From Promethearchaeota archaeon (GTDB taxonomy: Archaea > Asgardarchaeota > Lokiarchaeia > Sigyniarchaeales > SOKP01), in contig JBHLNS010000010.1 in assembly GCA_048941285.1 (NCBI GenBank), positions 20,177 through 84,176 of the forward strand: a stretch of 64,000 nt of DNA, in the 5' to 3' direction. This document shows, piece by piece, positions 12,067 to 30,671 of the stretch. The number at the start of each line of letters is the position of its first letter. The first letter of the stretch is position 1. The notes below the pieces were generated by a model. The model was not told the origin of the DNA, did no database searches, and saw only the letters and a list, made by a program, of their open reading frames with translations. A program made the translations under genes and the position numbers.

Positions 12067-12075
12067 ATAAATACT

Positions 12076-12672: not shown

Positions 12673-12707
12673 TCAAATTTTGAACTTTAATTAAATTAAT
12701 TATAATT

Positions 12708-12724
12708 AAAAAAAGAAAAAAAAA
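12708..12724 (-). terminator. oligo-T tract (T9-C-T7 on the minus strand) after the SDR gene
   Basis: The plus strand reads A7-G-A9 immediately downstream (minus sense) of the SDR stop at 12741. Confidence 0.35.
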
Positions 12725-12740
12725 TTAATAAACAAATTTA

Positions 12741-13580
12741 TTACGATTTGAAGCCTGTTATTTCTTCGCAAATCTTCCATAATCGGTTAGCATATTCTTT
12801 GTTGTAAGATTCTTCTGAAGATTCTCTTGGTTCCTTATTTATAAAATACTTACCTGTTATTCCTTCTACGTCTGGAGAAGAGGCTAAATAAATTGATGTT
12901 TTAGCTCCTTCTTCTGGACTTTTGAAGAATTTTCTTGCAAACCATTGGCTAAACTTTGACTGATCTCGACCAAGATTAGTATTAACCACGCCAGGATGGA
13001 CTGCATTAACCGTTACTCCAGTTCCTTCTAATCTTCTACTTAATTCATAAGTGAATAATACAGTTCCTAACTTAGATATTCCATATACTCTAAATAAGCT
13101 ATATTTCTTGTTTTCACTCTGAAGATCATCGAAATCAATTTTAGCTTTTTTATGTGCTGCTGAGGCGACATTAATAATGCGACTTGGAGCACTTTTTTTT
13201 AGATCATCAAGTAATAAATTGGTTAATAAAAAGGGACCAATAAGATGTGTCGCAAAATTCATTTCAATTCCATCTATAGATAAAATTCGCTCTTTAAGCA
13301 TGATTCCAGCGTTATTTATTAATACGTGTAAACTCTTATATTTACTCTTAAAATCTGAAACGAACTTGCGAATTGAATCCTGAGATGATAAATCACATAA
13401 AAGTAAATCAACATTTCTGTTTCCTGTCTTCTCAATGATTTCTTTTTTTGCTTCTTCTCCACGTTCTTTACTAATACAGAGCATTACTACAGTTGCATTC
13501 ATACTTGCTAAAGCTTTTGCTGTTTCCTTTCCGATACCTGAATTAGCACCAGTTATTAAGCATACTTTTCCTTCCATCAT
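12741..13580 (-). CDS. SDR family oxidoreductase (retinol-dehydrogenase-like)
   Basis: TGANSGIGKETA cofactor motif, NNAG, catalytic YGISK (YxxxK). Confidence 0.9.
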   Translation of the reverse strand: MMEGKVCLITGANSGIGKETAKALASMNATVVMLCISKERGEEAKKEIIEKTGNRNVDLLLCDLSSQDSIRKFVSDFKSKYKSLHVLINNAGIMLKERILSIDGIEMNFATHLIGPFLLTNLLLDDLKKSAPSRIINVASAAHKKAKIDFDDLQSENKKYSLFRVYGISKLGTVLFTYELSRRLEGTGVTVNAVHPGVVNTNLGRDQSKFSQWFARKFFKSPEEGAKTSIYLASSPDVEGITGKYFINKEPRESSEESYNKEYANRLWKICEEITGFKS

Positions 13581-13635
13581 AAGTCTAAACTCTTCTTTAT
13601 AGATTACATTGCTAGTAATATTTTGAATGATAAAA

Positions 13636-15431: not shown

Positions 15432-17432
15432 ATGAAAATTAAAAAAAACACAACTGTTCGAAGACGTAAAATCCCACGTTTAAGTCTTATAAGTTCTGTC
15501 ATATTTTTTTACATAATCTTTTTTAATCTGTGTTTTAATCCTTTTCCTTTATATAAGAAGGATATTGATAATCTTGTTGATGGACGTCTCTCGGAAAACT
15601 TGGATCGAGGTATTATTGCGATCTACATCAATAGTAGCCATGTATATGTAGGTTGGAGATTACTTGAAGATGATCCTATCAATATTTCATTCAATCTTTA
15701 CAGAGATAGCTTAGAAAGTTTGCCTATCAAATTAAATAAAGAATTAATCAGTCAAACTACCAATTTCATCGATCAACCTCCTAGTAATGAGACTAATTTT
15801 CGTTATTGGGTAAGACCAGTAGTCAATAGCTCTGAGCTAAGCCCTTCTAGAGGAACTTCAATATTAAATAATTTGGGAGAAGATTATATATCAATTGGTC
15901 TTAATGGAAATTATACATTTCAGAAAATAGGAATTGCAGATCTCAACGGTGATGGAAGCTATGATTATATCATAAAACAACCAAATTATAATATTGACCC
16001 TTTAGAACCGTATTTGGATGGGAATTGGGAGCCAAGCCAGGATACATATAAAATAGAGGCTTATTTATCTAATGGAACCTTTCTATGGAGTAAAGATTTA
16101 GGATGGGATATAGAACAAGGAATTTGGTATTCTCCCTATGTTGTTTATGATTTCGATGGAGATGGAAGAGCGGAAATTGCTTTAAAAACAGGTATTGGAG
16201 ATCATCGGGACTTGCTTGGTCGAGTTCAGACAGGTCCTGAATATCTTTCAATCTGGGATGGTATGACTGGCACCGAAATAACACGTTATCCATGGCCTCG
16301 ACGAATACCTCAGTTTTATAGCTGGAACTCTCGTAATCAGCTTGGTATTGCTTTTTTGGATGGCTATAATCCAAGTATTATTATAGCTCGAGGAACCTAT
16401 GGAATTATGAGACTTGAAGCAGTTCAATTTACTAATAATACTATTAAAAATTTATGGAAATGGGATACTAGTCAAGAATATTTTTTTAAATACTTTGGGC
16501 AAGGGGCTCATTTCATGCATTGTGCTGATGTAGATTCAGATGGGTTCGATGAAGTTTTGCTAGGATCATGTGTTATAGATCAAAATGGTAAGGGTCTCTG
16601 GTCTACTGGATTACAACATCCAGATCATTTTTATATTGGTGATATCGACCCGGGTCATCCCGGACTAGAAATATATTATGGTTTAGAAGGAATTCTTGCA
16701 GGAGTTGTAAGACACGAAAATGATATTTGCCTTGTTGATGCTGCAACAGGTAAGATTTTATGGGGAATAAAAGAGAAGACTTATCATGTTCATAGTCGAG
16801 GTTTAGTCTCTGATATTGACCCAGCTTATCCCGGAATGGAATGTTATAGTGGAGAATCTGATCTTCCTAAAAGATGGTTACATTCTGCTAATGGAACTTT
16901 CATAGCAAATGAAATTACATTTGATATTGGTTTAAACCCTGCAGCTGTATATTGGGATGCAGATCTTCAACGTGAATTATTATATAGTGGAAGAATCGAA
17001 GATTATAGTTCCAGTGAAATTCATTTATCGGGTATTAGTGGATATCAAGTGGCTTGGACAGATATATTGGGTGATTGGAGAGAGGAAGTCATAGTTTCAG
17101 TCGAAGGTGAAATAAGAATTTATACAACAACAATCCCAGCTGAAGATAGAAGGGTTTGCTTAATGCAAGATCCAATATATAGGCTTGATGTAGCACACAA
17201 TTCTATGGGATACTCTCAAGTACCTATGACCTCATATTGTCTTGATACCACTGGAGTAGTACCCTCAAGATATTCTGAACCAGAAGATAATTTTTATAAC
17301 TTTATGTTATTAATTATTATTTTGATTATTATTGCTATAGCTATCACTACAGTTATTGTTATAGCATTTTGGTTGTCAAAAAGAGACCAATTAGTCATTA
17401 TATTATCTCATTTATATAAAAAGGATAAGTAA
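15432..17432 (+). CDS. rhamnogalacturonan lyase family 11 (PL11, YesW/YesX-like) beta-propeller protein, membrane-anchored
   Basis: Collinear with PL11 landmarks: LDRGIIAI..VYVGWRLL, IADLNGDGSYDYIIK, YDFDGDGRAEIALKT, GPEYLSIWDG, ADVDSDGFDEVLLGS, GDIDPGHPGLEIY, VDAATGKILWG, DILGDWREEVIV..IRIYTTTIP, LMQDPIYR; N-terminal hydrophobic signal/anchor and C-terminal TM. Confidence 0.85.
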   Translation: MKIKKNTTVRRRKIPRLSLISSVIFFYIIFFNLCFNPFPLYKKDIDNLVDGRLSENLDRGIIAIYINSSHVYVGWRLLEDDPINISFNLYRDSLESLPIKLNKELISQTTNFIDQPPSNETNFRYWVRPVVNSSELSPSRGTSILNNLGEDYISIGLNGNYTFQKIGIADLNGDGSYDYIIKQPNYNIDPLEPYLDGNWEPSQDTYKIEAYLSNGTFLWSKDLGWDIEQGIWYSPYVVYDFDGDGRAEIALKTGIGDHRDLLGRVQTGPEYLSIWDGMTGTEITRYPWPRRIPQFYSWNSRNQLGIAFLDGYNPSIIIARGTYGIMRLEAVQFTNNTIKNLWKWDTSQEYFFKYFGQGAHFMHCADVDSDGFDEVLLGSCVIDQNGKGLWSTGLQHPDHFYIGDIDPGHPGLEIYYGLEGILAGVVRHENDICLVDAATGKILWGIKEKTYHVHSRGLVSDIDPAYPGMECYSGESDLPKRWLHSANGTFIANEITFDIGLNPAAVYWDADLQRELLYSGRIEDYSSSEIHLSGISGYQVAWTDILGDWREEVIVSVEGEIRIYTTTIPAEDRRVCLMQDPIYRLDVAHNSMGYSQVPMTSYCLDTTGVVPSRYSEPEDNFYNFMLLIIILIIIAIAITTVIVIAFWLSKRDQLVIILSHLYKKDK

Positions 17433-17443
17433 ATAATTAAGTC

Positions 17444-19474
17444 TTAATTAAAATTTTCTCTTTTCATAAATGAGGTCCATACATTTTCAAACCAACCGAA
17501 ATTACTTGGAATCTCTCTTATATCCTCCCAATCAATAATAATTTCTCCATTTTTCCATTGAAGGGTTTGGATTTTTTTTGATAAATCTAAATTATTATGA
17601 ATAAATTTATGCTCTTTAAGATAACCAGGAGGTACTATATACATTTCTGATAATGCGGATTTTAGATTTTCTCGTAAAATTAAGTAGGACCCTCTACTTC
17701 TTCCATATGTGATATGATAATTCAAAATAGCTTTTAAAAAGAATAAATGTGTAAGGAGAGCATTTTTAACATGGAAGTAATCGATTATTTCTGTGTTATT
17801 ATTTAATTTTATCAATTTAAGTATGTCTTTCAACTGATTCTCAACCTTTTTTACTTCAGGCTCAAGACCTTTTAAAGGGCGAGTAATGGTTGCGTATTTA
17901 GCCATTCTTTTTTGAATTTGGCCCAAAAGCTCGTTTGGAAATAGAAATTTCTCCTTGGAATTTTTAAAAATGGAAGAGATTTCTTTCTTAATATCAATAA
18001 TATCACTTCTTGCAATATTCTTAAATTGTTCATCATTTTTCAAAAGAATTCTATATTTAGAATGAGCTATTCTTTGGGCAACTCTTAAGCCCCCTACTTG
18101 CCCTGCATTTAATGCTGCCCCTCCAGGTCTATGAATGCCATGGTTTCCATTGATTTCACCTATGGCAAAGAGATTATTAACAGTACTTGACTCCCACCAA
18201 TTATCACATGATAATCCACCGTTGAGATGTTGATTGCATAAAGCTATTTCTAATGGTTCTGATGCAATATCAATTCCTTGATTGATATATACTTTTACTG
18301 CCTCTTTATTCAATTTATCTAGTCTCTCAATCGGAGATTCTCCTAGCGCATTAGATTTGATTAGGTAATCTTTTGCTATTGTGTGTAAATCCTCAAAATT
18401 AAAATTGTCTGGGTTTTTTGTATAATCTAAAAATACTCGTCTATTTAAGATTGTAGATTCGTGAAAAACTGCAAGATCAATTAAAGAAGAGCCAAAACCC
18501 TCTATTAAAGTCGAATTGAAAGGCCATTGATATCCTTTCAAAAAAATAGCTTTTGAAAGATCTGCAAAAGATGGAAAAACTTCGTTAAGAAATTCATTTT
18601 CATTACCATTATCCTCAATAGAAAAATATCTAGGAATTACTTGTTGATAGGACCCAGATAGATTCCATCGATATTTAGTGGATGCTAACCCGAATTGAGA
18701 TTCAGTTAAATTCTGTAATTTACACCCCGCTTGAATAGCTAAACTCATTGTACCTCTTTGAGATTTAGGGTAAACAGAATGTTTATATAAAATTGCTGGA
18801 CCCCCAGTTGCAAGGATGATGTTTCTCGCTTTAAAAATACTTAAAGAACCAAGAAAACCATCAATATTCTTTTCTTTAAATAATTTTTCAATATTAACAC
18901 AAATTAAACCAACAGCTTCAGGTTTTTCACTGTTGTCATTTATAACTGCTTTCAGAGCATAATGATTGTTATAAATCCTTATGTTTTTCTCTTGGACAGC
19001 TTTTAATAAACATTGTCCCATTTTTTGGGAAGTAAAAGGTCCTATTGAAGTAGCCCTTTGTCTTGGGTCGTTGTCTGTTTTGTATCCAACAAAACCTCCA
19101 AATTCATCGTAAGGAAAAGGAACACCAAGTTGGACTAAATGAAAAAATTCTCTTATAGAATTGGTTGCTTCAATTAAGGCAATATCTCCGTGCATAGCAC
19201 CTCCTGCACAGAGATCCTTTGCTAATTCGTAAGGGGAATCAGCTTGATCTCCATAAATAGACATTTTATAATAAGTTTGCTTATCAGATCCTGCATTAAA
19301 AGAAGTTCCTCCACCTAAATTCTCGGTTACAATAGCGATTTCATTTGAAGAAATACCTTCCAATACTAAATGAAGAGCACAATTTAATCCTGCAACTCCA
19401 GAGCCAACGATTATTGAATTATATTGTTTTATTTCAAATCGATCTATATCAAATTCTTCCATGATTATCCTCAT
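17444..19474 (-). CDS. FAD-dependent oxidoreductase (fumarate reductase/succinate dehydrogenase flavoprotein-like)
   Basis: N-terminal dinucleotide fold IVGSGVAGLNCALHL, and C-terminal FAIGEINGNHGIHRPGGAALNAGQVGG typical of the FAD_binding_2 family. Confidence 0.7.
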   Translation of the reverse strand: MRIIMEEFDIDRFEIKQYNSIIVGSGVAGLNCALHLVLEGISSNEIAIVTENLGGGTSFNAGSDKQTYYKMSIYGDQADSPYELAKDLCAGGAMHGDIALIEATNSIREFFHLVQLGVPFPYDEFGGFVGYKTDNDPRQRATSIGPFTSQKMGQCLLKAVQEKNIRIYNNHYALKAVINDNSEKPEAVGLICVNIEKLFKEKNIDGFLGSLSIFKARNIILATGGPAILYKHSVYPKSQRGTMSLAIQAGCKLQNLTESQFGLASTKYRWNLSGSYQQVIPRYFSIEDNGNENEFLNEVFPSFADLSKAIFLKGYQWPFNSTLIEGFGSSLIDLAVFHESTILNRRVFLDYTKNPDNFNFEDLHTIAKDYLIKSNALGESPIERLDKLNKEAVKVYINQGIDIASEPLEIALCNQHLNGGLSCDNWWESSTVNNLFAIGEINGNHGIHRPGGAALNAGQVGGLRVAQRIAHSKYRILLKNDEQFKNIARSDIIDIKKEISSIFKNSKEKFLFPNELLGQIQKRMAKYATITRPLKGLEPEVKKVENQLKDILKLIKLNNNTEIIDYFHVKNALLTHLFFLKAILNYHITYGRSRGSYLILRENLKSALSEMYIVPPGYLKEHKFIHNNLDLSKKIQTLQWKNGEIIIDWEDIREIPSNFGWFENVWTSFMKRENFN

Positions 19475-19478
19475 CTAA

Positions 19479-20279
19479 TTATAGGCGATGTATGTGAAAT
19501 CCGCCATCAATATCTAAAATTGTTCCCGTAGAAAAGGGAATTAAACCGCTTACAATTGCGATTATAGGTTTAGCAATATCAATGGGTTTACCCCATCTTT
19601 TAATTGGGGTAACGCCCTCGTTGATTAGTTTATTATAACTTTCAAATCTCGGTTTTGTTAAAGGGGTATCTATTATTCCTGGTGATATCTCAAATACGGG
19701 AATTTCATGTTCAGCTAATCTTACGGCAAAAAGTTTAGTCATCATGCTCATCCCTGCTTTTGAAATACAGTACTCCCCTCTGTTAAGTGAAGCTGTATAT
19801 CTATTTATAGAAGAAATATTAATGATATATGGTTGATAATCGTCTTTTATGGTTTGCTTTAGCTCAATCATCCATTTAGCAATAGCTTGAGTTAAGAAGA
19901 AGGGACCTTTAAGATTGATTCCCATTACTCTATCATAGGATTCTTCTGTCATTTCTAACATTTCTCCTCGTTTAATAGGACCAACGCCTGCGTTGTTCAC
20001 TAGGACATCTATTCGATTGAATTTCTTCTTAATTTCTTCTATTATTTTTTGTCGATCTTCTCTTTTTCCCACATTTGCTTGAATGTAAACATATTTATCT
20101 TTTAAATCCTCATTATAGATTTCTCTTAATCTTTTTGTATAGTCAGCCGAAAGCACCTTAGTTAAAGCACCATTAATAGCAACTGAAAAGCCAATTTTGG
20201 CTAGTTCCAAGATAATTTGTTCACCTATACCATGACTACTTCCAGTCACTAATGCTACTTTTTTATTTTCACGGCTCAT
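19479..20279 (-). CDS. SDR family oxidoreductase (3-oxoacyl-ACP-reductase-like)
   Basis: TGSSHGIGEQI, NNAG, YCISK; 4-nt gap to the downstream FAD gene. Confidence 0.85.
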   Translation of the reverse strand: MSRENKKVALVTGSSHGIGEQIILELAKIGFSVAINGALTKVLSADYTKRLREIYNEDLKDKYVYIQANVGKREDRQKIIEEIKKKFNRIDVLVNNAGVGPIKRGEMLEMTEESYDRVMGINLKGPFFLTQAIAKWMIELKQTIKDDYQPYIINISSINRYTASLNRGEYCISKAGMSMMTKLFAVRLAEHEIPVFEISPGIIDTPLTKPRFESYNKLINEGVTPIKRWGKPIDIAKPIIAIVSGLIPFSTGTILDIDGGFHIHRL

Positions 20280-20420
20280 AAAATACTATTTATTTGATTT
20301 TATTAAAAATATTATCAAATAGATCTCGTAAATCTAAATTTAAAAGAATAAATATAACATCATCTCTATCTAACAATAACACTTTAATTGAATAAAATAA
20401 AAATTATAAAATGATTCAGA

Positions 20421-22127
20421 ATGAGAAGATTTGCTAGTATTGATTTCTTGCGTGGTATCGCTATTGTATTGATGATATTTTTGCATGTCATTACACATGT
20501 TTTAGATGTTTCTGGAATGCTCGCTCAAATAAATAATATTCCTATGGTAAATATTGTAGCATTTGTTATGTTACCCTTCTTGGGAGGTTTGGCAGGCTTT
20601 TTCCTAATGGTATCAGCGATAGGTAATATGATTAGCATGTACAGACACCTGCAAGCAGGGAGAAGTGTGAAGGATTTAATCATTCGGCAAATTATGGGAG
20701 GTGTTCTATTACTGATTTTTGCTTGGATTTCGGAGAGCATACTTGGAATTCACGGTGTAATCCCAAATCTAATGAGATCTTTAGATGATTTATCCACATG
20801 GAATTGGCAGGTTATTCTTTACCGTGGTTATCATTTTGAAACTATCCATACAATTGCGTGGTGTATTATCCTTAACGGAATAGTCCAAGGCATTCTTTCT
20901 AGAAAAAATGGATGGAAAAATCCTAAAAAGCTTGTTAAAATATATTTAATATTAATTGTAGCAATTGTAGCCATAACTCCTCTCATGTGGTGGTTGGTGG
21001 ATTTGGCGATCCCCGGATATCCATGGGCTAATGATCCAGCTACAGGAGTGGATGTTCAATATCCTTATCTAGGGATTTCAGAATGGTGGAAATTTATAAC
21101 TCATTTCTTTTTTACTGCTATAGCAGGGAAAGAGGAACCATTATTTCCTTATCTCGCAGTATCCTTTATGGGAAGTATCATTGGTGTTATTTTAGCTCAA
21201 CCTAGAGAAGAAGTTCGAGAAAAATGGTTAAGTTTTCCAAAGAGAACAATGAAGATTGGTTTTATTATGTTTGTTATAGGCTCTATTGGTCTTGCTATAA
21301 ATCTAGTTCTTTTAATGATAGAAGTGAATATAGATGCTGCGTTGAATCTTTATATTGGACTTCCATTCCATCGAAACTGGGTTCCCGAAAATCCAGATAT
21401 CCCTAGTTCGGTATTACCCGTTTTAGGGTGGTTATTCCAATTTTTAAGTCTAAATGGAGCTGCTATTTGTCTCATAATGGTAGTAGTTCGTGTAGTCGAA
21501 TTTCGAGGACGTGGTAAAAAATTTGCTGATAAAACTCGTTTTTTCCGCCGATTTGGATTTGTTGCTTTCACTATGTATAATATTCAGTGGCTATATTTGT
21601 TCATCTGGTTTTTAGTTTCAGCATTAATATATAATCAACCATACTTACCACTTGATTGGGTTGGTACATTTCTAGTAATGGCTATAACATTTTTAATCTT
21701 TCAGGGTATATTGCTACTTTGGGAGAAAGCGAAGTATACTGGAAGCTTAGAATGGACAATGGGCACTATTGCGGCTCAGATCATTCCAACGAGGAAAGTA
21801 GAAGGTAAATGGTGGAGATCTGGACAATTAAATGTTGAAGATGCTTTTTATAATGCTGAATGGTTAAATATCATAGAGGAAAATGAGATAGCGCATGATT
21901 TGCAAAGAGATTCAAAATTTGCTTATAAAATGTCATTTTTTGGATTTCTTTTCTTCCCAATATCATTTATTACATTTATAATCGCACGAGGATCTGTACG
22001 TACTGAACAAAAAAATAAATATAATAAGTGGGGAAAAATTGTTTCATTAATAGGCATTATCTTTTTCTTAACATGGCTAGTTATTTCAATAATTTTCAGT
22101 TTATCGGATCTTGGAATATCTCTCTAG
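20421..22127 (+). CDS. HGSNAT/DUF1624-like transmembrane acyltransferase
   Basis: N-terminal RFASIDFLRGIAIVLMIFLH (R..S[IL]D..RG......H signature) followed by many TM helices. Confidence 0.6.
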   Translation: MRRFASIDFLRGIAIVLMIFLHVITHVLDVSGMLAQINNIPMVNIVAFVMLPFLGGLAGFFLMVSAIGNMISMYRHLQAGRSVKDLIIRQIMGGVLLLIFAWISESILGIHGVIPNLMRSLDDLSTWNWQVILYRGYHFETIHTIAWCIILNGIVQGILSRKNGWKNPKKLVKIYLILIVAIVAITPLMWWLVDLAIPGYPWANDPATGVDVQYPYLGISEWWKFITHFFFTAIAGKEEPLFPYLAVSFMGSIIGVILAQPREEVREKWLSFPKRTMKIGFIMFVIGSIGLAINLVLLMIEVNIDAALNLYIGLPFHRNWVPENPDIPSSVLPVLGWLFQFLSLNGAAICLIMVVVRVVEFRGRGKKFADKTRFFRRFGFVAFTMYNIQWLYLFIWFLVSALIYNQPYLPLDWVGTFLVMAITFLIFQGILLLWEKAKYTGSLEWTMGTIAAQIIPTRKVEGKWWRSGQLNVEDAFYNAEWLNIIEENEIAHDLQRDSKFAYKMSFFGFLFFPISFITFIIARGSVRTEQKNKYNKWGKIVSLIGIIFFLTWLVISIIFSLSDLGISL

Positions 22128-22161
22128 ATACCTAAAAGAGTAAAATTTACTTTAAATCCAA

Positions 22162-22171
22162 TTTTTTTTTT
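22162..22171 (+). terminator. oligo-T tract (T10) after the acyltransferase gene
   Basis: T10 lies 35 nt after the stop at 22127. Confidence 0.35.
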
Positions 22172-22211
22172 ATTAAATTTAAAATTACCATTTTAATTAG
22201 GGGTTTTTTGA

Positions 22212-24248
22212 ATGAATCATATTAAGAAAAATATGAGTGAAACAGAGATTGAAGTTTATGTAAGAAGTGTTCTTAATAGAATGACTTTAGAACAAAAAGT
22301 TCAACAAATGACTGGGAATGGATTATATCTTAAGGTGTTAAAAGATGGAGGATTTGGTAAGCGGGTATATGATGCAGCTGGTTCAGATGAATTTAATATT
22401 CCTCCCTTTAAATTTACTGATGGTCCTCGCGGAGTAATAATACCAGATTCTACATGTTTTCCCGTTTCAATGGCTCGTGGAGCATCCTGGGATATAGAAT
22501 TAGAACAACGAATTGGTGATGTGATCGGAAAAGAAGTTCGTGCACATGGAGGTAATCTTTTTGGAGGTGTTTGCATTAATAATTTACGACACCCCTCTTG
22601 GGGCAGAGCTCAAGAAACTTATGGTGAAGATTCTTATCTAATAGGAGAATTTGGTGCTGCATTAACTCGTGGGGTACAAAAACACAATGTCATGGCAACT
22701 GCAAAACATTTTGCAGCAAACAGTATTGAAAATGCACGTTTTAAGGTCAATGTGAAAATGGACGAACGAACACTACGTGAGGTATATTTACCACATTTTA
22801 AAAGATGTGTAGAGGAGGGATGTGCAACAATAATGAGTGCTTATAACAAAGTTCGAGGAAAATATTGTGGTCATAACAATTATCTGTTACGTGAAATTTT
22901 AAAAAAAGAATGGAATTTTGATGGATTTGTACATTCTGATTGGATTTACGGTTTAAAAAATACTGTAGGCGGAATTACAGGTGGTTTAGATGTTGAAATG
23001 CCTCGAAAAAAATACTATAGACTTCGGAGAATACAAAATTTTCTCCAAAAAGGCAAAATATCAGAAGATATGATTGATGAAGCTGCTCGAAGAGTCATGA
23101 AAACAATCCTTCGTTATACTACCAAAGAAGATCCCCAAATATATGAACAAGATTTAATCGGATGTGAAGAGCATCTTAATGTAGCATTAGAAGCTGCAGA
23201 AAAGAGTATGGTACTCTTAAAAAATGAAAATAATATTCTACCCTTGAAAAAAGCTAAATTAAACAAATTAGGAATCTTTGGAAGATTAGCCAGATTAAGA
23301 AATACAGGTGACCATGGCAGTAGTAATGTAAATAACAAAAAAATTATTACTCCTTTAAAAGGTATAAAAAATTATTTGGGAGATTCCATTGAACTGCTTT
23401 ACAATGATGGACAAGATGAAGATAGTGTGAGAAAAATGGCTAAGGAGGTGGATATTGCTATTATAGTTGTTGGATTAACCTATAAGGATGAGGGAGAATA
23501 TATTCGTGAATTCAGAACTGGCGGAGATCGAGAGAATTTATCATTAAATGATAAGCATATCAAATTGATAGAGAATGTTGCATCTCAAAATGCAAAATCT
23601 ATTGTTATTTTAGTTGGAGGGAGTGCTATTACTATGGAAGAATGGAAAAATAAAGTTCCAGCAATACTAATGGCATGGTATTCAGGCATGGAGGGAGGGA
23701 AAGCTTTAGCAAGAATTATTTTTGGTGAGGTTAACCCAGGTGGAAAACTTCCCTTTACTATTCCTAAAGATCCAAACGATTTACCATTTTTTGATAAGAA
23801 CGCTGATGAAATTGAATATGGGTATTATCATGGATATACTCTTTTTGACAAAACAGGATTGGAACCAGCATTTCCTTTTGGTTTTGGATTAAGCTATACC
23901 GCTTTTGAATATAGTAATTTAAACGTTGATGTTAAAAATGATTCTATTCTTGCTTCTGTAGAAGTTAAAAATACCGGAAAGATAACTGGAGATGAGGTAG
24001 TTCAATTATACATAGGATTTGAAAATTCTAACATTGATCGTCCAGTAAAATTATTAAAAGGCTTTTCGCGAGTTCACATAAAACCAAATGAAGTTAAAGA
24101 TGTAAATATTGAAGTTCACATAAAGAATCTTGCATGGTATAATCCAACTTCTAAAACTTGGGAGATTGAAAAAATACAATATACACTTTATGTAGGTCCA
24201 TCATCTAAAGAAGATGAACTGTTATCTGTTCAATTTAAATTGAACTAA
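22212..24248 (+). CDS. glycoside hydrolase family 3 (beta-glucosidase / beta-hexosaminidase-type)
   Basis: KHFAANSIE, nucleophile motif GFVHSDW, and a C-terminal Fn3-like region (GKITGDEVVQLYI); no signal peptide, so probably cytoplasmic. Confidence 0.9.
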   Translation: MNHIKKNMSETEIEVYVRSVLNRMTLEQKVQQMTGNGLYLKVLKDGGFGKRVYDAAGSDEFNIPPFKFTDGPRGVIIPDSTCFPVSMARGASWDIELEQRIGDVIGKEVRAHGGNLFGGVCINNLRHPSWGRAQETYGEDSYLIGEFGAALTRGVQKHNVMATAKHFAANSIENARFKVNVKMDERTLREVYLPHFKRCVEEGCATIMSAYNKVRGKYCGHNNYLLREILKKEWNFDGFVHSDWIYGLKNTVGGITGGLDVEMPRKKYYRLRRIQNFLQKGKISEDMIDEAARRVMKTILRYTTKEDPQIYEQDLIGCEEHLNVALEAAEKSMVLLKNENNILPLKKAKLNKLGIFGRLARLRNTGDHGSSNVNNKKIITPLKGIKNYLGDSIELLYNDGQDEDSVRKMAKEVDIAIIVVGLTYKDEGEYIREFRTGGDRENLSLNDKHIKLIENVASQNAKSIVILVGGSAITMEEWKNKVPAILMAWYSGMEGGKALARIIFGEVNPGGKLPFTIPKDPNDLPFFDKNADEIEYGYYHGYTLFDKTGLEPAFPFGFGLSYTAFEYSNLNVDVKNDSILASVEVKNTGKITGDEVVQLYIGFENSNIDRPVKLLKGFSRVHIKPNEVKDVNIEVHIKNLAWYNPTSKTWEIEKIQYTLYVGPSSKEDELLSVQFKLN

Positions 24249-24264
24249 ATATGAAAAATTTTAA

Positions 24265-25284
24265 TCAAAATTTTTCAATATTTTCTTTTTTCCCAGTTTC
24301 AGAAGATTTATATAAAGCAGATATTAAACTTAGAACTTTAGAGCTTTCTTCTATTGTATTGAAATAAGGTTTATCGTGAAGTACCCATTCCCCAAATGCT
24401 TTTACTGATCGCCCAAAATGAGAAAACCCTTTTATTTCTTTTTTGGTTTTGAATTTTTTGACCCCTTTCCAAGTTAAAGATGATTTTGGCCAAGGACCTT
24501 TATAGAAACATCTTCCTTTTTTACCAAAAACTTCCAATTCAACCTTTTCTTTAAATATTCCGTAAGGGGGGTTAATAAATGTTGAATCATTAATTTGGGC
24601 ATAGATTCCGTTTTCAAATTCAATAATTCCTAAACCAAAATCTTCTACTTCGATATTCTTGAATCTGAGATTATCAGTCTTTCCCATTATTGTTTTTGGT
24701 GCGCCAAAAGCCCATATCATAATATCAAGTATATGTGAACCATGAATTAAAAGAGTTCCCCCTCCTGCAGTCTCTTTTTTAGTCCGCCAGGGACCTTTTT
24801 CAAAATATGTTTCATTTCTACTGAAGTATACATTACAATTAGCGTAATATACTTCACCTAAATGATTATTCTGTAAAGCATTAACCAAACGATAGCAATT
24901 ATGGTCATATCGATAATTATAATTAAAACCTAACTTCAAATCTTGGTATTGATTATCTAAATTCTGTATCTCCCGAGCGTCGCCTAATGATATAGAAACA
25001 GGTTTTTCACAGAGAACATGCTTTCCATTTTCAAAAGCTTGTTTTATCATTGGTTTATGAAGGTGATGAGGTGTGGCAATATATACAGCATCAAAATCCT
25101 CATTCTCATACATCTCCTCAGGATCTGTACAAGCATATCCTCCAATTTTAATAGCTTTATTTATATCTAAATCAACGGCTGCAACAATTTTTGTATTTTT
25201 TATTATTTTTGTTACAAGTTTATACATCTTAGTTATCCCACCACAGCCGATAACCCCAACTTGCAATAGATTTTTATTAGTCAT
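24265..25284 (-). CDS. Gfo/Idh/MocA family oxidoreductase
   Basis: N-terminal Rossmann VGVIGCGGI and the conserved EKP motif (HVLCEKPVS). Confidence 0.85.
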   Translation of the reverse strand: MTNKNLLQVGVIGCGGITKMYKLVTKIIKNTKIVAAVDLDINKAIKIGGYACTDPEEMYENEDFDAVYIATPHHLHKPMIKQAFENGKHVLCEKPVSISLGDAREIQNLDNQYQDLKLGFNYNYRYDHNCYRLVNALQNNHLGEVYYANCNVYFSRNETYFEKGPWRTKKETAGGGTLLIHGSHILDIMIWAFGAPKTIMGKTDNLRFKNIEVEDFGLGIIEFENGIYAQINDSTFINPPYGIFKEKVELEVFGKKGRCFYKGPWPKSSLTWKGVKKFKTKKEIKGFSHFGRSVKAFGEWVLHDKPYFNTIEESSKVLSLISALYKSSETGKKENIEKF

Positions 25285-25302
25285 TGTGCTCCACCATTAT
25301 TG

Positions 25303-25935
25303 CTATTCTTTTAGAACCCATCTAACCATATCTCTTATAAGTGTACGATAGATCTTATTCTTTAAAGATTTTGCTTGATGTCCTAATGCACAAAAAGCAA
25401 CTCTTCCCTCTCCATACGTCTTAACCCAGATTATAGGTTCAGGATTAGGATCTTTCTCATCATGATAATATCCTTCTGCTAATACTTTCATATCACCTTT
25501 CATAGAGAAATCGTGTCTATATGGTTCATCAAAGAAAGTAAAGTCTTCTAGATTAGCAATTATTGGATGAGATTTATCAAGTATTTTGATATCTATGTTG
25601 GTTTTCTTTTTATGCTTTAAAAATCTCCCTCCAATCATTTCATAATATTTAGGATGCTTCTTAAAAGAAGCTGAGGCTCCATGTAATCCAACAAATCCTT
25701 TTCCACCAGCAATAAAATCCAGTAAATTTTTTTCTTGCTTTTCAGTAAATTCACCAAATTGAGTAAAAAAGACAGTTGTGTCATAATCAAAGAAGTCTCT
25801 ATTATTGAAGATTTCTACATCTTCGTAAATATCAACAATATAATCATTTAAAACTTCCTTAAAATAAGAGGAGGTTTTTTTCTTCTTAAAATGCCTACCC
25901 CTTTGACATATCAAAATTTTCTTTTTCACAGCCAT
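25303..25935 (-). CDS. ThuA-domain protein (trehalose-utilisation-like)
   Basis: GGKGFVGLHGASASF, IGGRFLKH, GRVAFCALGH; 18 nt upstream of the Gfo/Idh/MocA gene. Confidence 0.75.
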   Translation of the reverse strand: MAVKKKILICQRGRHFKKKKTSSYFKEVLNDYIVDIYEDVEIFNNRDFFDYDTTVFFTQFGEFTEKQEKNLLDFIAGGKGFVGLHGASASFKKHPKYYEMIGGRFLKHKKKTNIDIKILDKSHPIIANLEDFTFFDEPYRHDFSMKGDMKVLAEGYYHDEKDPNPEPIIWVKTYGEGRVAFCALGHQAKSLKNKIYRTLIRDMVRWVLKE

Positions 25936-25994
25936 AAACCATCATAAAAAAAAAATGAAAAGTTCTTTATTAAGGGATCTCTAGTTATAATGTA

Positions 25995-27368
25995 ATGAGT
26001 CTAAATCCTTCCCTCTCCCAATTTGAAACATTTGCTTATAAAACGTTAAATGAATTAGAAATAAATATTAAAAAATTGGGATTGGATATTCCAATATATC
26101 CAAGAGTAGAAATTCTACAACAAAGAGTACATGTTCATAATTTATTTTTACCTAACAGATTAGCAATTCAACCAATGGAAGGATTCGATGCTAATTCTGA
26201 TGGATCTCCTGGAAAATTAACTTATAGACGATATGAAAGATATGCAAAGGGTGGGGCTGGTTTAATTTGGTTCGAGGCTACAGCAATTAACTATGATTGT
26301 CGATCAAATCCTCATCAATTAGTCTTATCAGAAGAAAATTGTGAAAAGTTTGAAAAATTTGTTTCATTTACAAGAGAGGTTTCTAATAAAGCTCTTAAAG
26401 AGTTAGGTTTTGTGAATAAAAGTATATTAATTCTCCAATTAAACCATTCTGGAAGATATTGTGTAAGGGATGGTAGGAATTATCCTTTAAGAGGTTATCA
26501 TAATCCTGATTTAGATAAAGCTAAAAAACTCTCAAAATTGGAAGGTACTATTTTATCGGATAAGGAATTAAAAGAATTAGAGGATGTTTGGGTTCAGAAA
26601 GCGATTTTGGCAAAAAAGGTCGGTTTTGATGGGGTAGACATTAAATCTTGTCATGGTTATTTAATTCATGAATTACTTAGTTCAAGACTTCGAGAAGACT
26701 CTAAATATGGTGGGAAATCTCTAGAAGGTAGGTCAAAATTTCTTCTAAATATCATAAAAAAATTAAATAATAAACTCAAAAATGAGAGAAATTTTATAAT
26801 TACAACTCGAATGAGCGTTTACGATGGAATTCCTTTCCCTAATGGTTTTGGAGTTAAAATGGATGAAACTGAGAGTTTTCCCGCTTCAATAGACCTTTCT
26901 GAGCCTTTAGAGGTTATTAATAAGCTCTATAAACAAGGTTTAAGGTTAATAAATATATCAGCGGGAAATCCTCATTATAAACCTCAAATCACTCGCCCGT
27001 TTGATAAACCAATAAAAGGAGGGCTTTTACCGAATGAACATCCTTTATATGGTGTAAATAGGCTTTTAAACTTGGCAACCTTAATTAAAAATCATCTACC
27101 AGATGACATGATAGTTGTGGGATCTGGTTATTCCTATTTACGCCAATTTGCAGGATACGTTGCAGCGGGTATGGCACATGAAAAGCGAGTAGATATTTGC
27201 GCATTTGGAAGGATGGCATTAGCAAATCCTAATTTTCCAAAACAAATTTTTCAAGAGGGAAAAATGGATAAAAAACAGGTATGTATCACCTGTTCAAAAT
27301 GTTCTGAATTGATGAAACTAGGCCAAAATGTAGGATGTGCTACTAGAGATCCTGAATATCAGAAGTAA
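25995..27368 (+). CDS. Old Yellow Enzyme-type NADH:flavin oxidoreductase with a C-terminal Fe-S motif
   Basis: LPNRLAIQPMEG, CHGYLIHELLSSRLR; the C-terminus reads CITCSKCSELMKLGQNVGC (CxxCxxCx11C). Confidence 0.8.
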   Translation: MSLNPSLSQFETFAYKTLNELEINIKKLGLDIPIYPRVEILQQRVHVHNLFLPNRLAIQPMEGFDANSDGSPGKLTYRRYERYAKGGAGLIWFEATAINYDCRSNPHQLVLSEENCEKFEKFVSFTREVSNKALKELGFVNKSILILQLNHSGRYCVRDGRNYPLRGYHNPDLDKAKKLSKLEGTILSDKELKELEDVWVQKAILAKKVGFDGVDIKSCHGYLIHELLSSRLREDSKYGGKSLEGRSKFLLNIIKKLNNKLKNERNFIITTRMSVYDGIPFPNGFGVKMDETESFPASIDLSEPLEVINKLYKQGLRLINISAGNPHYKPQITRPFDKPIKGGLLPNEHPLYGVNRLLNLATLIKNHLPDDMIVVGSGYSYLRQFAGYVAAGMAHEKRVDICAFGRMALANPNFPKQIFQEGKMDKKQVCITCSKCSELMKLGQNVGCATRDPEYQK

Positions 27369-27447
27369 AAATTAATAGAGAAACTTATTTTAATCATTAG
27401 ATTGAATTTATAATATTAGAAAATTAAAAATCTCTGTTCTTGATATA

Positions 27448-29787
27448 ATGGAAAAATTTCGAAATCAGAAGAAATACATTAGATATATTCTTTTTTTAGG
27501 ATTGTTTCTCATTATGTCTATTCCTCTTTGGAAAATTATAATTTCAATTAATATTGGTGGACCATTGATATTTCTAGCATTTGTACTGTATTATGTGAGC
27601 TCTAATACAATTTTTAATAATATTATTATAATTTTTTTTCTAATTTATTTAACTTTTATAATCTATCGGATAAAAGCAGCAAATAGAAGCAAAACCAAGA
27701 AATCTCCAAAATTAATTTTATTATTTGTAATTTTAGTTTTACCACAATTTTTCATTTTTGAGCAAGATTATCCCAAACCTAAAATAAGCCAAGAACAATG
27801 GGAGTTCTCAATGAGAACTAGTTTCAACCGTAATTTTGATTTATTTGATACATTTAACGCAACTGAGGGTTATAGAGAACGTCAGAGTGTATATTTGAAT
27901 GATAGTAAAAACAGTAACCATGTATACGCTCAAGTATCTCGAATTTATTTAGGTTTGAATGTGAGTGAAGCCAGTATTGAAGCCTCACTTTATAAAATTT
28001 ACAACCTGAAAGATACTTTGGATTTTACTTTGAATAATCTTATACGTTTGATATACATCGACATAAATAGAAGTATTTTGAGTCCAACAATACGGAAAAA
28101 AGTTATTGATGCTTTTGGTAAAACAAAGTATTGGTACACGGAACCTGTTAGAGATAATATGATATATTATACAGAGAATCATCAAATTCTTTTTCATACC
28201 GCAGAATTACTCATAGGGCAACTTTTTCCTAATGATACGTTCGTTATCTCAAATATGACTGGGCTTGAACATGTAAATCATGCTCTTCCTCTAGTAAAAA
28301 GATGGCTTGATTGGAGAGCTCAATTTGGTTTTGCGGAATGGCACTCAAATACATACTATACTGAAGATATAGCGGCTCTTGTTAACCTTGTTGATTTTTC
28401 AGAAGATCCTGAAGTTGTTTATAAAGCAGCGATGGTTTTAGATATAATAGCTTTTGATTTTGCTAATAATTATTATAAGGGTAGATATGCCACCACGCAT
28501 GGTCGTTGCTATGATAGAACTAAATTAGGCCCTAGTATAATATCTCCCGCATCTCGAGACAGTACCTCTGAATCTGCTTGGATAATGCTAGGTCTTGGAT
28601 ATCATAATCCTTCAGATAATAGTAATCTTGCTGCAGTCGCTTTAGCTACCAGTGATTATTATGCCCCCCCTCCTATTTTGGAGGATATCGCCAATAACGC
28701 AACCTTATATAACGAACATAAGGAAAGAAACAGTATTGACATGAATGACGGCGAAATGTACAATATAAATTATAACGAAGATGATCTAATGTTTTGGTTA
28801 GGTATGTCTGCGGTTCTACCACCTCAAACAATAAAAGGGGTCTTTGAATTAGTAGAAAAATATAATATAGATTCAAATAATATGTATGGTCCAACATTAA
28901 TCTCTGACTTTTTTCGAATATCAGCATTTCTGCATGGAATTTCACTTAGTCAATATTCTGAGAAAATGAAGCTCATAACCCAGGGGATATGCTTAGAAAC
29001 TTCAAATACTTATACATATAGAACACCCTACTATCAGCTTTCCGGTTCTCAAGATCATCAGAAAGGAATGAATAGTTATCAAGAACACATTTGGCAAGCT
29101 AGTTTAGACGATGATGCTTTTATTTATACAAATTCACCCGGAGGGTTAACTAAAGATTTTGAACAAGAATATGTTGGTGGTTGGAATCCAAGAGCTACGT
29201 TATATAAAAATGTAGGGGTAATCCAATATGACCGTGAAACTTTACCATTAGAAGGAGAATTACTATTATATTTCCTCAATCTTTTTACAGGTAATAAATT
29301 CTATCAACATGCTTATTTTCCCCAATGGGCTTTTGATGAGATAGAAGAGCGAGGAAAATGGATATTTGGTGCTAGAGGAGGAGGATATATTGCACTTTAT
29401 TCTTTCTATAACACTAGATGGGCTTCTGATTATGAATTAAGGGTTGATGGGTTCAAAAATTTATGGATCGTTGAATTGGGAAGTGTTGATGAATATGGTT
29501 CATTTAATCAATTTATTTCTGATATCCAACAATCTCAAATACAAGTTGTACCACAAGCATTAGGTTTTAATGTCCAGTATTCATCTCCTTCTCAAGGACT
29601 AGTAAGGGTTTCATGGAATGGGCCAATGATTGTAGATGGAAGTGAGGTCGACTTAGGTCCTTATGCTCGTTTTGATAATGATTATTGTTATCAAAATTTT
29701 GATACAAAATCGACTTTAATTCAATTTGGGAATCAGAGTTTAGAGTTGGATTTTATTAATGCTTCAAGAATTTATCAAATTAATTAA
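27448..29787 (+). CDS. membrane-anchored large extracytoplasmic protein, possibly alpha/alpha-toroid (heparinase II/III-like) glycan-active enzyme
   Basis: 779 aa; about 100 aa of N-terminal TM segments. YYTENHQILFHTAELLIGQLF and FGFAEWHSNTYYTED resemble the NH...W / E-x-S-x-x-YH elements of heparinase II/III-type lyases, but the functional call is weak. Confidence 0.4.
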   Translation: MEKFRNQKKYIRYILFLGLFLIMSIPLWKIIISINIGGPLIFLAFVLYYVSSNTIFNNIIIIFFLIYLTFIIYRIKAANRSKTKKSPKLILLFVILVLPQFFIFEQDYPKPKISQEQWEFSMRTSFNRNFDLFDTFNATEGYRERQSVYLNDSKNSNHVYAQVSRIYLGLNVSEASIEASLYKIYNLKDTLDFTLNNLIRLIYIDINRSILSPTIRKKVIDAFGKTKYWYTEPVRDNMIYYTENHQILFHTAELLIGQLFPNDTFVISNMTGLEHVNHALPLVKRWLDWRAQFGFAEWHSNTYYTEDIAALVNLVDFSEDPEVVYKAAMVLDIIAFDFANNYYKGRYATTHGRCYDRTKLGPSIISPASRDSTSESAWIMLGLGYHNPSDNSNLAAVALATSDYYAPPPILEDIANNATLYNEHKERNSIDMNDGEMYNINYNEDDLMFWLGMSAVLPPQTIKGVFELVEKYNIDSNNMYGPTLISDFFRISAFLHGISLSQYSEKMKLITQGICLETSNTYTYRTPYYQLSGSQDHQKGMNSYQEHIWQASLDDDAFIYTNSPGGLTKDFEQEYVGGWNPRATLYKNVGVIQYDRETLPLEGELLLYFLNLFTGNKFYQHAYFPQWAFDEIEERGKWIFGARGGGYIALYSFYNTRWASDYELRVDGFKNLWIVELGSVDEYGSFNQFISDIQQSQIQVVPQALGFNVQYSSPSQGLVRVSWNGPMIVDGSEVDLGPYARFDNDYCYQNFDTKSTLIQFGNQSLELDFINASRIYQIN

Positions 29788-29807: not shown

Positions 29808-30671
29808 GTGATAGTAAAAAAATTATTAAGAATTGGGAAACCTGCCGTAAAGGGTAGTATTTTAGTCATTTTTGGAATTTTAAATTCTCGTATTGGTATT
29901 GGAGTAGAGATTTTTACAAACAATCTTATTTATGGCCCTCTTGCATATCTTTTCCTCGCTCTTTCAGGAATAATCATTATCAAACTCCTTCATATACTAA
30001 ATAATCCCTATGATAGAGGTAAATTAAATAAAAATAGAGTTTTACTTGTTTTGGGAATTTTAAGTATTATTAGTTTAATTTTAATTATCTGTAATATATT
30101 TGAGAATTTAACAATTTATTATCTTAATATTCCTATTATTCTTTTTACAGCATTTATTATCGCCTTTTGGATTGCTTTAGGCTATTTTGGTGCTAAGAAT
30201 ATAATAGAAAAGATATCTGTAAAGATACTTGTTTTTACGTTCTCCTTCTCTCTTGGATTATTCTACGGTGTTTTCTTAAATACTTATATAATTCCTACTC
30301 AAATCTATTTTTTTTTTTTGTCATTGTCATTTTTACAATTGTCTAGAGAATTCTCAAAGAGATTAAATGAAAAAGAAAAAATTAAGGAGTATTTGCGATT
30401 TCCTTATAAAATTGATGAGAGAAACCTACTTAAGTTTTCATTGTTCTTTCAATTTGCTGCGATAATTTTCCTTATTATTCCAGTATTCCTTGAAATATAT
30501 AATAATTTCATACTTCTTTTTTTTATGGTTTTTAATTTAATAGCTATAGGTATTGCTTCTATTCTGACTTTAGCAAGCTTAATAGAAAAAGAGATTTACA
30601 ACAGTATAAGTTTGATATTAAAAATTGGAATATTATTGGAATTAATTATGTTTTTAGTTTTAGGAATATAG
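29808..30671 (+). CDS. polytopic membrane protein, function unknown
   Basis: 287 aa, GTG start, about 8 hydrophobic segments. Confidence 0.5.
   Translation: MIVKKLLRIGKPAVKGSILVIFGILNSRIGIGVEIFTNNLIYGPLAYLFLALSGIIIIKLLHILNNPYDRGKLNKNRVLLVLGILSIISLILIICNIFENLTIYYLNIPIILFTAFIIAFWIALGYFGAKNIIEKISVKILVFTFSFSLGLFYGVFLNTYIIPTQIYFFFLSLSFLQLSREFSKRLNEKEKIKEYLRFPYKIDERNLLKFSLFFQFAAIIFLIIPVFLEIYNNFILLFFMVFNLIAIGIASILTLASLIEKEIYNSISLILKIGILLELIMFLVLGI

Follow-up and report, generated by a model that had tools for sequence, protein, structure and literature searches.

A putative acidic-glycan utilisation island in bacteria and Asgard archaea, organised around a lyase-like protein family without a Pfam model

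Introduction

Lyase-based loci for acidic glycans are already well known, as is the transfer of bacterial genes into Asgard archaea, and Asgards are usually described as fermenters of peptides and amino acids. Here we examine a gene cluster from one such archaeon, on a 64,000-nucleotide stretch that we call the window (Promethearchaeota archaeon, assembly GCA_048941285.1, contig JBHLNS010000010.1, positions 20,177 to 84,176 of the forward strand). The original prediction for this DNA, made from the letters alone, placed a bacterial-style polysaccharide utilisation set at positions 15432-29787 and framed it around a PL11 lyase.

Several described systems come close to this cluster. In the textbook route for uronates, as laid out in PMC4306948, PMC5334617 and PMC8778563, a lyase yields DEH, which passes through a short-chain dehydrogenase/reductase (SDR), a 2-keto-3-deoxygluconate (KDG) kinase and an aldolase for KDPG (2-keto-3-deoxy-6-phosphogluconate). 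ThuAB is a disaccharide 3-dehydrogenase (PMC8121099), and PMC10628242 and PMC7676230 describe a sequence of oxidation, elimination, hydration and finally reduction as an established alternative to hydrolysis. For the PL11 lyases, the roles of the active-site residues (Ca2+ ligands, a sugar-stacking Tyr, and Arg452 and Lys535 of YesW) are taken from PMC8787155.

The cluster in the window combines pieces of all of these. On balance, we lean towards reading it as an island for the utilisation of acidic (uronate-containing) glycans that bacteria and Asgard archaea share, with a 779-aa protein, unk779, as its organising gene. The substrate and the chemistry we infer. Beside unk779 stand an SDR (SDR266), a divergent flavoprotein (FAD676), a ThuA-domain protein and a Gfo/Idh/MocA oxidoreductase (Gfo). 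This SDR-FAD-ThuA-Gfo quartet is undescribed in the literature that we searched, and neither Pfam nor a sequence search of the PDB assigns the candidate lyase family to a class. That literature also gave no account of the locus itself, of a lyase pathway linked to ThuA, or of Asgard proteins resembling heparinase or HGSNAT.

Results

Conservation of the module

The module of unk779, SDR, FAD, ThuA and Gfo is conserved across different gene orders and across the divide between archaea and bacteria. We scanned the GTDB species genomes with the GH3 protein of the locus as the query, and this returned 19 Asgard loci at 62-82% identity, named Promethearchaeota, Hermodarchaeota, Thorarchaeota or "uncultured archaeon", followed by bacteria at 52% or less. 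The block FAD676-SDR266-TM568-GH3-Gfo-ThuA-OYE-unk779-unk287 is kept in the order and orientation of the window in 12 Asgard species genomes (L002, L003, L006, L007, L008, L012, L013, L014, L015, L016, L019 and L027; some of these loci end early at contig ends), and it is conserved in about 8 metagenome contigs as well. Four other loci (L004, L005, L009 and L011) have the same flanking genes with only GH3, with or without OYE, between them. By this comparison, FAD, SDR, TM568, Gfo, ThuA, unk779 and unk287 are gained or lost as a set. Two Asgard loci are rearranged: L108 reads unk779-unk287-SDR-FAD-Gfo-ThuA-OYE, and L071 reads TM568-MFS-Gfo-unk779-unk287, with a sugar transporter of the major facilitator superfamily (MFS) inside the block.

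Bacterial contamination or misbinning was considered and rejected. Database proteins identical to the PL11 and unk779 proteins of the window bear the name Promethearchaeota archaeon. More than 15 independent metagenome-assembled genomes (MAGs) of Asgards share the flanks and the block, and the same flanking genes are present in L011, which is a closed 3.34-Mb Asgard chromosome (CP070831.1), so contamination is excluded.

A metagenome scan for unk779 gave 79 loci, which were analysed together with L001 by tblastn and by clustering of the neighbouring open reading frames (ORFs). Counted over 78 loci, the neighbours of unk779 are unk287 (43), Gfo (14), SDR (13), ThuA (11), FAD676 (8), OYE (8), TM568 (6), GH3 (6), MFS_2 (4) and PfkB (4). 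Within Asgard genomes, unk287 is the most constant of them.

Three contigs with 43-55% GC (L087, L092 and L094) carry a single-strand operon, SDR-FAD-ThuA-Gfo-MFS_2-unk779b-unk779a. Its partner proteins are 31-48% identical to those of the window, and unk779a is 52-53% identical to unk779. A PfkB kinase lies between the two unk779 paralogues in L092. L094 is the only one of the three with its upstream flank in the sequence, and there a LacI regulator precedes the operon; we assigned this contig to Thermodesulfobacteriota according to how proteins with at least 90% identity are named. In all three operons unk779a has a lipoprotein signal and unk779b has no signal, a pairing that by analogy would be the outside-endo and inside-oligo arrangement typical of lyase systems. 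L139 has a solute-binding protein (SBP) in the order SBP-unk779-Gfo-PfkB-KDPG aldolase, and L127 and L136 are similar. In bacteria, the unk779 family is linked to sugar transporters, PfkB, KDPG aldolase, LacI and, through fusions described below, GH88.

Genes of the locus

The genes are as follows (positions are those of the window).

15432..17432, + strand: PL11 homologue, 666 aa; Pfam RGL11_C and RGI_lyase; accessory member, at the block's edge
17444..19474, - strand: FAD676, divergent FAD_binding_2 flavoprotein, 676 aa; Pfam FAD_binding_2 1.9e-17; core member
19479..20279, - strand: SDR266, short-chain dehydrogenase, 266 aa; Pfam adh_short 3.6e-42; core member
20421..22127, + strand: TM568, polytopic HGSNAT/DUF1624-like membrane protein, 568 aa; called from a fold match and Pfam hits in its family
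22212..24248, + strand: GH3, cytoplasmic exo-glycosidase (candidate), 678 aa; three GH3 domains in Pfam
24265..25284, - strand: Gfo, Gfo/Idh/MocA NAD(P) oxidoreductase, 339 aa; three Gfo/Idh/MocA domains in Pfam; core member
25303..25935, - strand: ThuA-domain protein, 210 aa; Pfam ThuA 5.6e-36, 125 bits; core member
25995..27368, + strand: OYE, Old-Yellow-Enzyme-family FMN oxidoreductase, 457 aa; Pfam Oxidored_FMN 1e-26
27448..29787, + strand: unk779, membrane-anchored, outward-facing protein, 779 aa; candidate polysaccharide lyase from its predicted fold
29808..30671, + strand: unk287, polytopic membrane protein with about 8 transmembrane (TM) helices; from hydropathy and synteny with unk779

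The stretch 15432-29787 holds nine long ORFs in five separate transcription units on both strands, and the unit reaches one gene past 29787, to the end of unk287 at 30671. The ten adjacent genes of the original prediction are to be corrected in this sense. Its 4-nt gap between FAD676 and SDR266 is exact (19475-19478); ThuA and Gfo lie on the same strand with a spacing of 18 nt. Seven of the nine ORFs (PL11, FAD676, SDR266, GH3, Gfo, ThuA and OYE) score above the curated Pfam thresholds, in agreement with the families that had been named for them. NCBIfam gave no equivalog-level assignment for any catabolic step among the proteins of the locus. Hydropathy agrees with an outward-facing PL11 and unk779 and a cytoplasmic GH3, as first proposed: PL11 begins with a signal-anchor and has a TM anchor at its C-terminus, the TM helices of unk779 lie at its N-terminus, and GH3, Gfo, ThuA, OYE, FAD676 and SDR266 are soluble and have no signal sequence.

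We scanned 19 ORFs between 7982 and 33117 and 10 larger ones between 33624 and 55938. An importer, GH105 and KduI are not detectable inside 15432-29787, as had been stated. The missing importer is a property of this genome's version only, since L071 has an MFS transporter and the bacterial versions have MFS_2 or SBP.

The unk779 family

The unk779 protein has no sequence hit in Pfam, NCBIfam or PDB. Two profiles of its family, A1 (42 sequences) and A2 (68 sequences), found nothing among the PDB sequences at E<=10. A Pfam scan of 68 diverse relatives gave no domain for the unk779 region, with Hepar_II_III not matched and only two GH88 fusions. A word-indexed search returned more than 250 relatives, and among the 120 matches listed those with an organism name are all Asgard or unclassified archaea. 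A profile search that used no word index yielded 3,125 representative clusters, of which 873 reach E<=1e-30. Judged by sequence similarity, unk779 is a large family that spans the domains of life and has no Pfam model.

Two distant members (P0372 and P0387) carry a C-terminal GH88, which acts specifically on lyase products. Other long members carry SLH repeats, a tachylectin domain or InlB B-repeats. These four kinds of domain are hallmarks of extracellular carbohydrate-active proteins.

The AlphaFold2 model of unk779 (pLDDT 87.2) has an alpha-helical toroid domain at about 140-510 and a beta-sandwich at 519-779. With Foldseek, its best match in the PDB is heparinase III (4FNV, E 1.2e-4, prob 1.0), and the further matches are only polysaccharide lyases: GAGase VII, chondroitin AC lyase, alginate lyase Atu3025, heparinase III BT4657 and chondroitinase ABC. 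The TM-scores are low (0.2-0.34), so we treat this as evidence for the fold class only. Throughout the family E243, H245 and E297 are invariant and N244, Y303 and H621 nearly so; W298, S300, R353, Y405 and Q545 are also invariant or nearly invariant. Along the sequence, the first six lie where candidate catalytic residues of such a lyase might be expected. As a lead only, we take the catalytic set of PL5, PL12, PL15 and PL17 to be an Asn-His pair, a Tyr some 55 residues on, and a His in the sandwich domain. By our reading, unk779 would be a beta-eliminating depolymerase, anchored at the cell surface in the archaeon.

We also noted some features of the family and its companions that stand apart from this question. 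Tandem unk779 duplicates occur in low-GC Asgard-type contigs (L074 684-4847, L078, and L109 7710-11908), and these are distinct from the secreted and cytoplasmic paralogue pair of the bacterial operons. In another Asgard clade (L077, L083, L084, L089, L093, L097, L107, L125 and others), unk779 lies near lysine-fermentation genes, namely lysine 5,6-aminomutase (alpha and B12-binding subunits), lysine 2,3-aminomutase and gamma-glutamyltranspeptidase. We read this as lineage synteny and set these neighbours aside as functional partners. A homologue of unk287 in L130 (1293-2288) has a faint match to UbiA prenyltransferases (E=0.008, below the cut-off), and unk287 of the window has an N-x-x-Y-D-like stretch.

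The membrane protein TM568

The original prediction called TM568 an HGSNAT-like acetyltransferase. Its own hit to HGSNAT_cat in Pfam is poor (E=0.15; 12 bits, where the cut-off is 22), and the call holds through its family and its fold: 22 of 47 family members match HGSNAT_cat at E<=1e-3, the best at 5.8e-8. An AlphaFold2 model (pLDDT 88.4) searched with Foldseek against the PDB has human HGSNAT in all of its top 10 hits (prob 1.0, TM-score 0.38-0.49), and the next hit has a prob of 0.25. A TM568 profile run against the PDB sequences did not hit HGSNAT, and so this link comes from the fold search only. The family has an invariant N-terminal motif, R-x-x-S-I-D-x-x-R-G...H, and is spread across Loki-, Heimdall-, Hod- and Sigyn-type Asgards. 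The fold match and the family's Pfam hits together support the HGSNAT call at the level of fold and superfamily, with TM568 as a probable divergent member of the HGSNAT/DUF1624 transmembrane acetyltransferases.

GH3 and the oxidoreductases

GH3 has three Pfam domains (Glyco_hydro_3, Glyco_hydro_3_C and Fn3-like, at 136, 183 and 78 bits) and the SDW motif of the nucleophile Asp (...FVHSDW...). Its best NCBIfam hits are all below their equivalog cut-offs, and we regard it as a candidate exo-glycosidase of the beta-glucosidase/xylosidase/arabinopyranosidase type. GH3 is also retained alone in relatives that have no other part of the block. All that is left of it in L141 is an Fn3-like remnant of 188 aa, and it therefore seems dispensable for the block.

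The closest PDB matches of Gfo are DgpA1 (5e-25) and DgpA (4e-22), which are C-glycoside 3-dehydrogenases, followed by glucuronide-3-dehydrogenase (8e-19). It scores far below the cut-offs of the NCBIfam 3-dehydrogenase models, and we call it a putative glycoside 3-dehydrogenase. Gfo adjoins unk779 homologues in the 14 metagenome loci counted above, and the ThuA-Gfo pair is kept both in the Asgard block and in L087, L092 and L094.

In the PDB, FAD676 comes closest to L-aspartate oxidase (36 bits), and NCBIfam hits occur only far below cut-offs; these matches place it, very divergent as it is, in the fumarate-reductase / L-aspartate-oxidase superfamily. Its homologues in L087, L092 and L094 (39-48% identity) stand next to the SDR, and homologues of SDR266 adjoin those of FAD676 in Asgard and bacterial loci alike. 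SDR266 scores 302 bits with NCBIfam PRK12745, above the cut-off, and 139 bits with the KduD models, against cut-offs of 339-369. It may be a keto-uronate or keto-sugar reductase. OYE matches OYE/ene-reductases in the PDB at 1.5e-19 and is a putative ene-reductase. The 8 unk779 loci that have it are all Asgard-type, and it belongs only to the Asgard version of the block. We would regard GH3, OYE, TM568 and PL11 as additions specific to this clade.

Surroundings of the locus

The window has a GC content of about 30%, and tRNA and Rfam scans of it gave no RNA genes. The genes that flank the locus are unrelated to it: an ABC-2 exporter, a metallo-beta-lactamase-fold protein, an O-methyltransferase (OMT), a second SDR (SDR0), an alpha/beta hydrolase (abH) and a PEMT-like protein. 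No carbohydrate gene was seen among the larger ORFs scanned downstream (33.6-56 kb), and the 19 + 10 scanned ORFs (7982-55938) include no TonB-dependent receptor or SusD of the SusC/SusD pair found in polysaccharide utilisation loci of Bacteroidota.

Between SDR0 and PL11 lies a 561-aa low-complexity polytopic membrane ORF with no Pfam hit (13636-15321, - strand). We rejected it as a member of the system. None of the syntenic loci contains an equivalent, and it therefore seems to be an insertion specific to this genome. Further along are a 777-aa ORF with an InhA-like MAM domain (41508-43841, + strand, Pfam 6.5e-17), possibly a secreted protease-like protein, and a homologue of LuxE-type acyl-protein synthetases (48103-49281, + strand, Pfam 1.6e-18).

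Discussion

Proposed mechanism

If the island serves acidic glycans, its parts could work together in the following way. Membrane-anchored unk779 would cut the polymer at the archaeal surface by beta-elimination, with a contribution from PL11 where it is present. TM568, the HGSNAT-like protein, may transfer acetyl groups from cytoplasmic acetyl-CoA to an exposed amino sugar, and the fragments would be imported through a transporter encoded outside the window's copy of the locus. Inside the cell, GH3 would trim neutral beta-linked sugar and ThuA/Gfo would oxidise the glycoside at C3. FAD676, OYE and SDR would then reduce enone or keto-uronate products towards KDG-type intermediates, so that the oxidoreductases would stand in for the missing GH88/GH105 and KduI steps.

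A more specific version of this proposal has three parts. The first is that unk779 is a new and widespread polysaccharide lyase family (more than 3,000 clusters in Asgards, Thermodesulfobacteriota and other bacteria). The second is that SDR-FAD-ThuA-Gfo, with OYE in Asgards, is an undescribed route that replaces GH88/GH105 and KduI. The third is that unk779, unk287 and TM568 form a surface system for a heparosan-like glucosamine/uronate glycan. We put it forward tentatively, and find it doubtful that all three parts hold together. If they do, the surface system would be a prokaryotic parallel to the eukaryotic degradation of heparan.

The main claim of the original prediction, that an Asgard archaeon carries a set of genes for glycan utilisation in the bacterial style, is borne out by the Pfam families and by the synteny, which extends over the 12 species genomes and recurs in part, rearranged, in bacteria. 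What had been set down as a large unknown exo-protein does remain without a family by sequence; its predicted structure is that of a lyase-like protein of the heparinase III fold, and it becomes the key component. The suggestion of an undescribed oxidative pathway gains support, short of demonstration, because the SDR-FAD-ThuA-Gfo quartet travels with the unk779 family across domains and because the nearest solved relatives of Gfo are glycoside 3-dehydrogenases.

Several observations weigh against the island as we read it. The similarity of unk779 to lyases is modest (TM-score 0.30-0.34), and epimerases and some hydrolases use the lyase-type fold too. In the unk779, FAD676 and ThuA families, no member is known to have an enzyme activity in such a context. 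An importer, a KDG kinase and an aldolase were not found among the scanned ORFs of the 64-kb window. Outside the close clade, unk779 shows no linkage to GH3, TM568 or OYE, and within that clade the unrelated flanking genes (OMT, SDR0, abH, PEMT and unk211) are equally syntenic, so the synteny there could partly reflect shared descent. Finally, most Asgard genomes keep only the unk779-unk287 pair, beside unrelated genes, and a surface role outside catabolism would explain this stand-alone pair no less well.

Alternative readings

Such a role is the main rival to the catabolic reading. The locus might remodel or mature a glycan of the cell envelope, with unk779, in this case a protein of a lyase or C5-epimerase type of fold, acting together with unk287 and TM568 on the cell's own surface or extracellular polysaccharide and the oxidoreductases making or modifying sugar precursors. 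The 43 loci with the unk779-unk287 pair are mostly without a catabolic neighbour, both of these proteins are membrane-embedded, and the TM568 family occurs across Asgard lineages independently of the block. The lack of an importer, kinase and aldolase among the scanned ORFs would also be expected from remodelling, and proteins with a lyase fold can be epimerases. However, the bacterial operons have LacI, MFS_2 or SBP importers, PfkB, KDPG aldolase and a cytoplasmic paralogue, GH88 fusions exist in the family, and Asgard versions of the block contain a cytoplasmic GH3 and an MFS sugar transporter, while a glycosyltransferase or flippase is absent from the block. We consider remodelling rather unlikely on this evidence.

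A second alternative keeps PL11 at the centre. The locus would then begin with PL11 acting on rhamnogalacturonan, ulvan or a similar polymer, and the other genes would process its products by a novel oxidative route. That this protein belongs to PL11 by fold and by profile is secure as far as sequence comparison goes: RGL11_C matches at 5.8e-92 (309 bits, cut-off 27) and RGI_lyase at 2.8e-17 (63 bits, cut-off 27.8), and the best PDB hits over residues 51-606 are 4CAG (8e-90) and YesW (5e-89), with full-length alignment to 4CAG, YesW and YesX. In an alignment of 120 homologues to 4CAG, the Ca-site His/His/Asp/Glu and the Tyr are kept in the window protein and in 119-120 of the 120, and the equivalent of YesW Arg452 is present in the window protein. 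The protein is surface-anchored, and in L019, L027 and L141 it occupies the same place as in the window, at the left edge of the block between the flanking SDR and FAD676.

Most of the distribution of PL11 speaks against it as the organising enzyme. It is found in only 2 of the 12 block-bearing species genomes (L019 and L027) and in L141 of another MAG. The other ten genomes lack it, including the two closest relatives of the window, L002 and L003, and so do all bacterial versions of the module. Distant Asgard homologues stand alone among unrelated genes. The column of YesW Lys535 holds a Gln in the window protein and a Lys in none of the 120 nearest homologues, with loop indels that make the alignment there uncertain; the rhamnogalacturonan specificity is therefore unproven. 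The rhamnogalacturonan framing of the original prediction has to be given up, and we think that a locus initiated by PL11 is improbable.

Some further observations concern PL11 and its relatives. The nearest relatives outside the Asgards, at about 60% identity, are from Armatimonadota, Hydrogenedentes, Planctomycetota and Poribacteria. Many NCBI records of PL11-like proteins in this clade (P0121-P0240; Asgard, Planctomycetota, Hydrogenedentes and Poribacteria) bear the label "silent information regulator protein Sir2", which looks like a propagated mis-annotation given their clear PL11 domains. Bacterial members (P0139, P0158, P0164, P0177 and others) are fused to an LmbE/PIG-L deacetylase (PF02585) or to CBM4_9, and these fusions hint that the clade may act on glycans with N-acetylated amino sugars rather than on pectin. 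In L141 (MAG GCA_044240345.1; positions 12074-14257 and 19044-19610), radical-SAM/SPASM and PEMT-like genes are inserted between PL11 and FAD676, and GH3 is cut down as described above. Genes for small GTPases of the Arf/Ras/Roc type, an Asgard hallmark, lie a few kb from stand-alone PL11 homologues in L142 (4469-5434) and L143 (5707-6270).

Least probable of all, though close to the PL11 reading, is that there is no functional unit and that unrelated, horizontally acquired genes came to lie side by side in a variable region (equally syntenic flanks, the 561-aa gene unique to the window, the extra genes in L141, and five transcription units on both strands would all suit this), with synteny reflecting recent common ancestry only; we dismiss it on the single-strand bacterial operons that hold SDR-FAD-ThuA-Gfo and unk779 in another order with partners 31-48% identical, the rearranged L108 and L071, and core genes that are present or absent together.

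Significance

With the utilisation island as the favoured reading, a family of thousands of "hypothetical proteins" becomes a testable candidate for a carbohydrate-active family, with named partners and predicted catalytic residues. The module of four oxidoreductases may be an alternative way to process lyase products, and this would bear on models of the carbon cycle in anoxic sediments, a habitat that Asgard archaea share with sulfate reducers. A whole module, catabolic by our reading, would be common to bacteria and Asgards. For the public databases, there is an annotation to correct in the PL11-like proteins labelled as Sir2.

Comparison with known systems

Compared to YesW and YesX of B. 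subtilis, the PL11 homologue aligns over the entire eight-bladed propeller (E about 1e-89) and keeps the Ca-binding residues and the Tyr. It differs from YesW in the Gln at the Lys535 position, which is not conserved in the clade of Asgards, Armatimonadota, Planctomycetota and Hydrogenedentes. Unlike the Bacillus yes/RG-I (rhamnogalacturonan I) cluster, the window has no GH105, RG-specific ABC importer or rhamnose/galacturonate catabolic genes among its scanned ORFs, and PL11 is dispensable for a block of this type.

Canonical uronate catabolism uses a polysaccharide lyase, GH88/GH105 or an exolyase, KduI/DhuI, KduD or a DEH reductase, KdgK and KdgA. The bacterial relatives of the module likewise carry a transporter, SDR, PfkB and KDPG aldolase, and their extracellular and cytoplasmic lyase-like paralogues resemble those of many alginate and glycosaminoglycan systems. 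In contrast to that route, the module has no GH88/GH105 (rare fusions excepted) and no KduI/DhuI, its conserved FAD-ThuA-Gfo trio has no counterpart there, and the Asgard copy has no kinase or aldolase locally.

With ThuAB and the glycoside 3-dehydrogenases of the Gfo/Idh/MocA type (DgpA, glucuronide 3-dehydrogenase, BT2158/9 and LgdA of the levoglucosan pathway), the window shares an adjacent ThuA and Gfo, the latter closest to DgpA1, DgpA and glucuronide-3-dehydrogenase. Oxidation before cleavage is the logic of these pathways (PMC8121099, PMC10628242 and PMC7676230). The locus differs from them in having neither a beta-eliminase of the xylose-isomerase type nor a DUF1080 3-keto-glycoside hydrolase, and in joining the pair to an FAD_binding_2 flavoprotein, an SDR and, in Asgards, OYE.

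The toroid lyases, heparinase III foremost, are the best and only significant structural matches of unk779. Its toroid followed by a beta-sandwich is the layout of heparinase III/PL12, PL8, PL15 and PL35 (4FNV, 5JMD, 8KHW, 2X03 and 3AFL), and members of its family adjoin GH88, KDG kinase and KDPG aldolase genes. Its pattern, in which a toroid helix bears Asn-His, a Tyr follows about 58 residues further on and the sandwich supplies a His, resembles the lyase set as we presume it to be, which we again offer as a lead only. The differences are that unk779 has no sequence relation to any Pfam family or solved structure, even with the 68-sequence profile, that its TM-scores are low, and that the Asgard members are anchored by N-terminal helices and paired with the polytopic unk287.

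TM568, lastly, differs from lysosomal HGSNAT in its identity of about 14% and in its score below the Pfam threshold. Its model nevertheless matches the cryo-EM structures of human HGSNAT and nothing else, and it adjoins a protein with a predicted heparinase fold, an association that recalls degradation of the heparan type.

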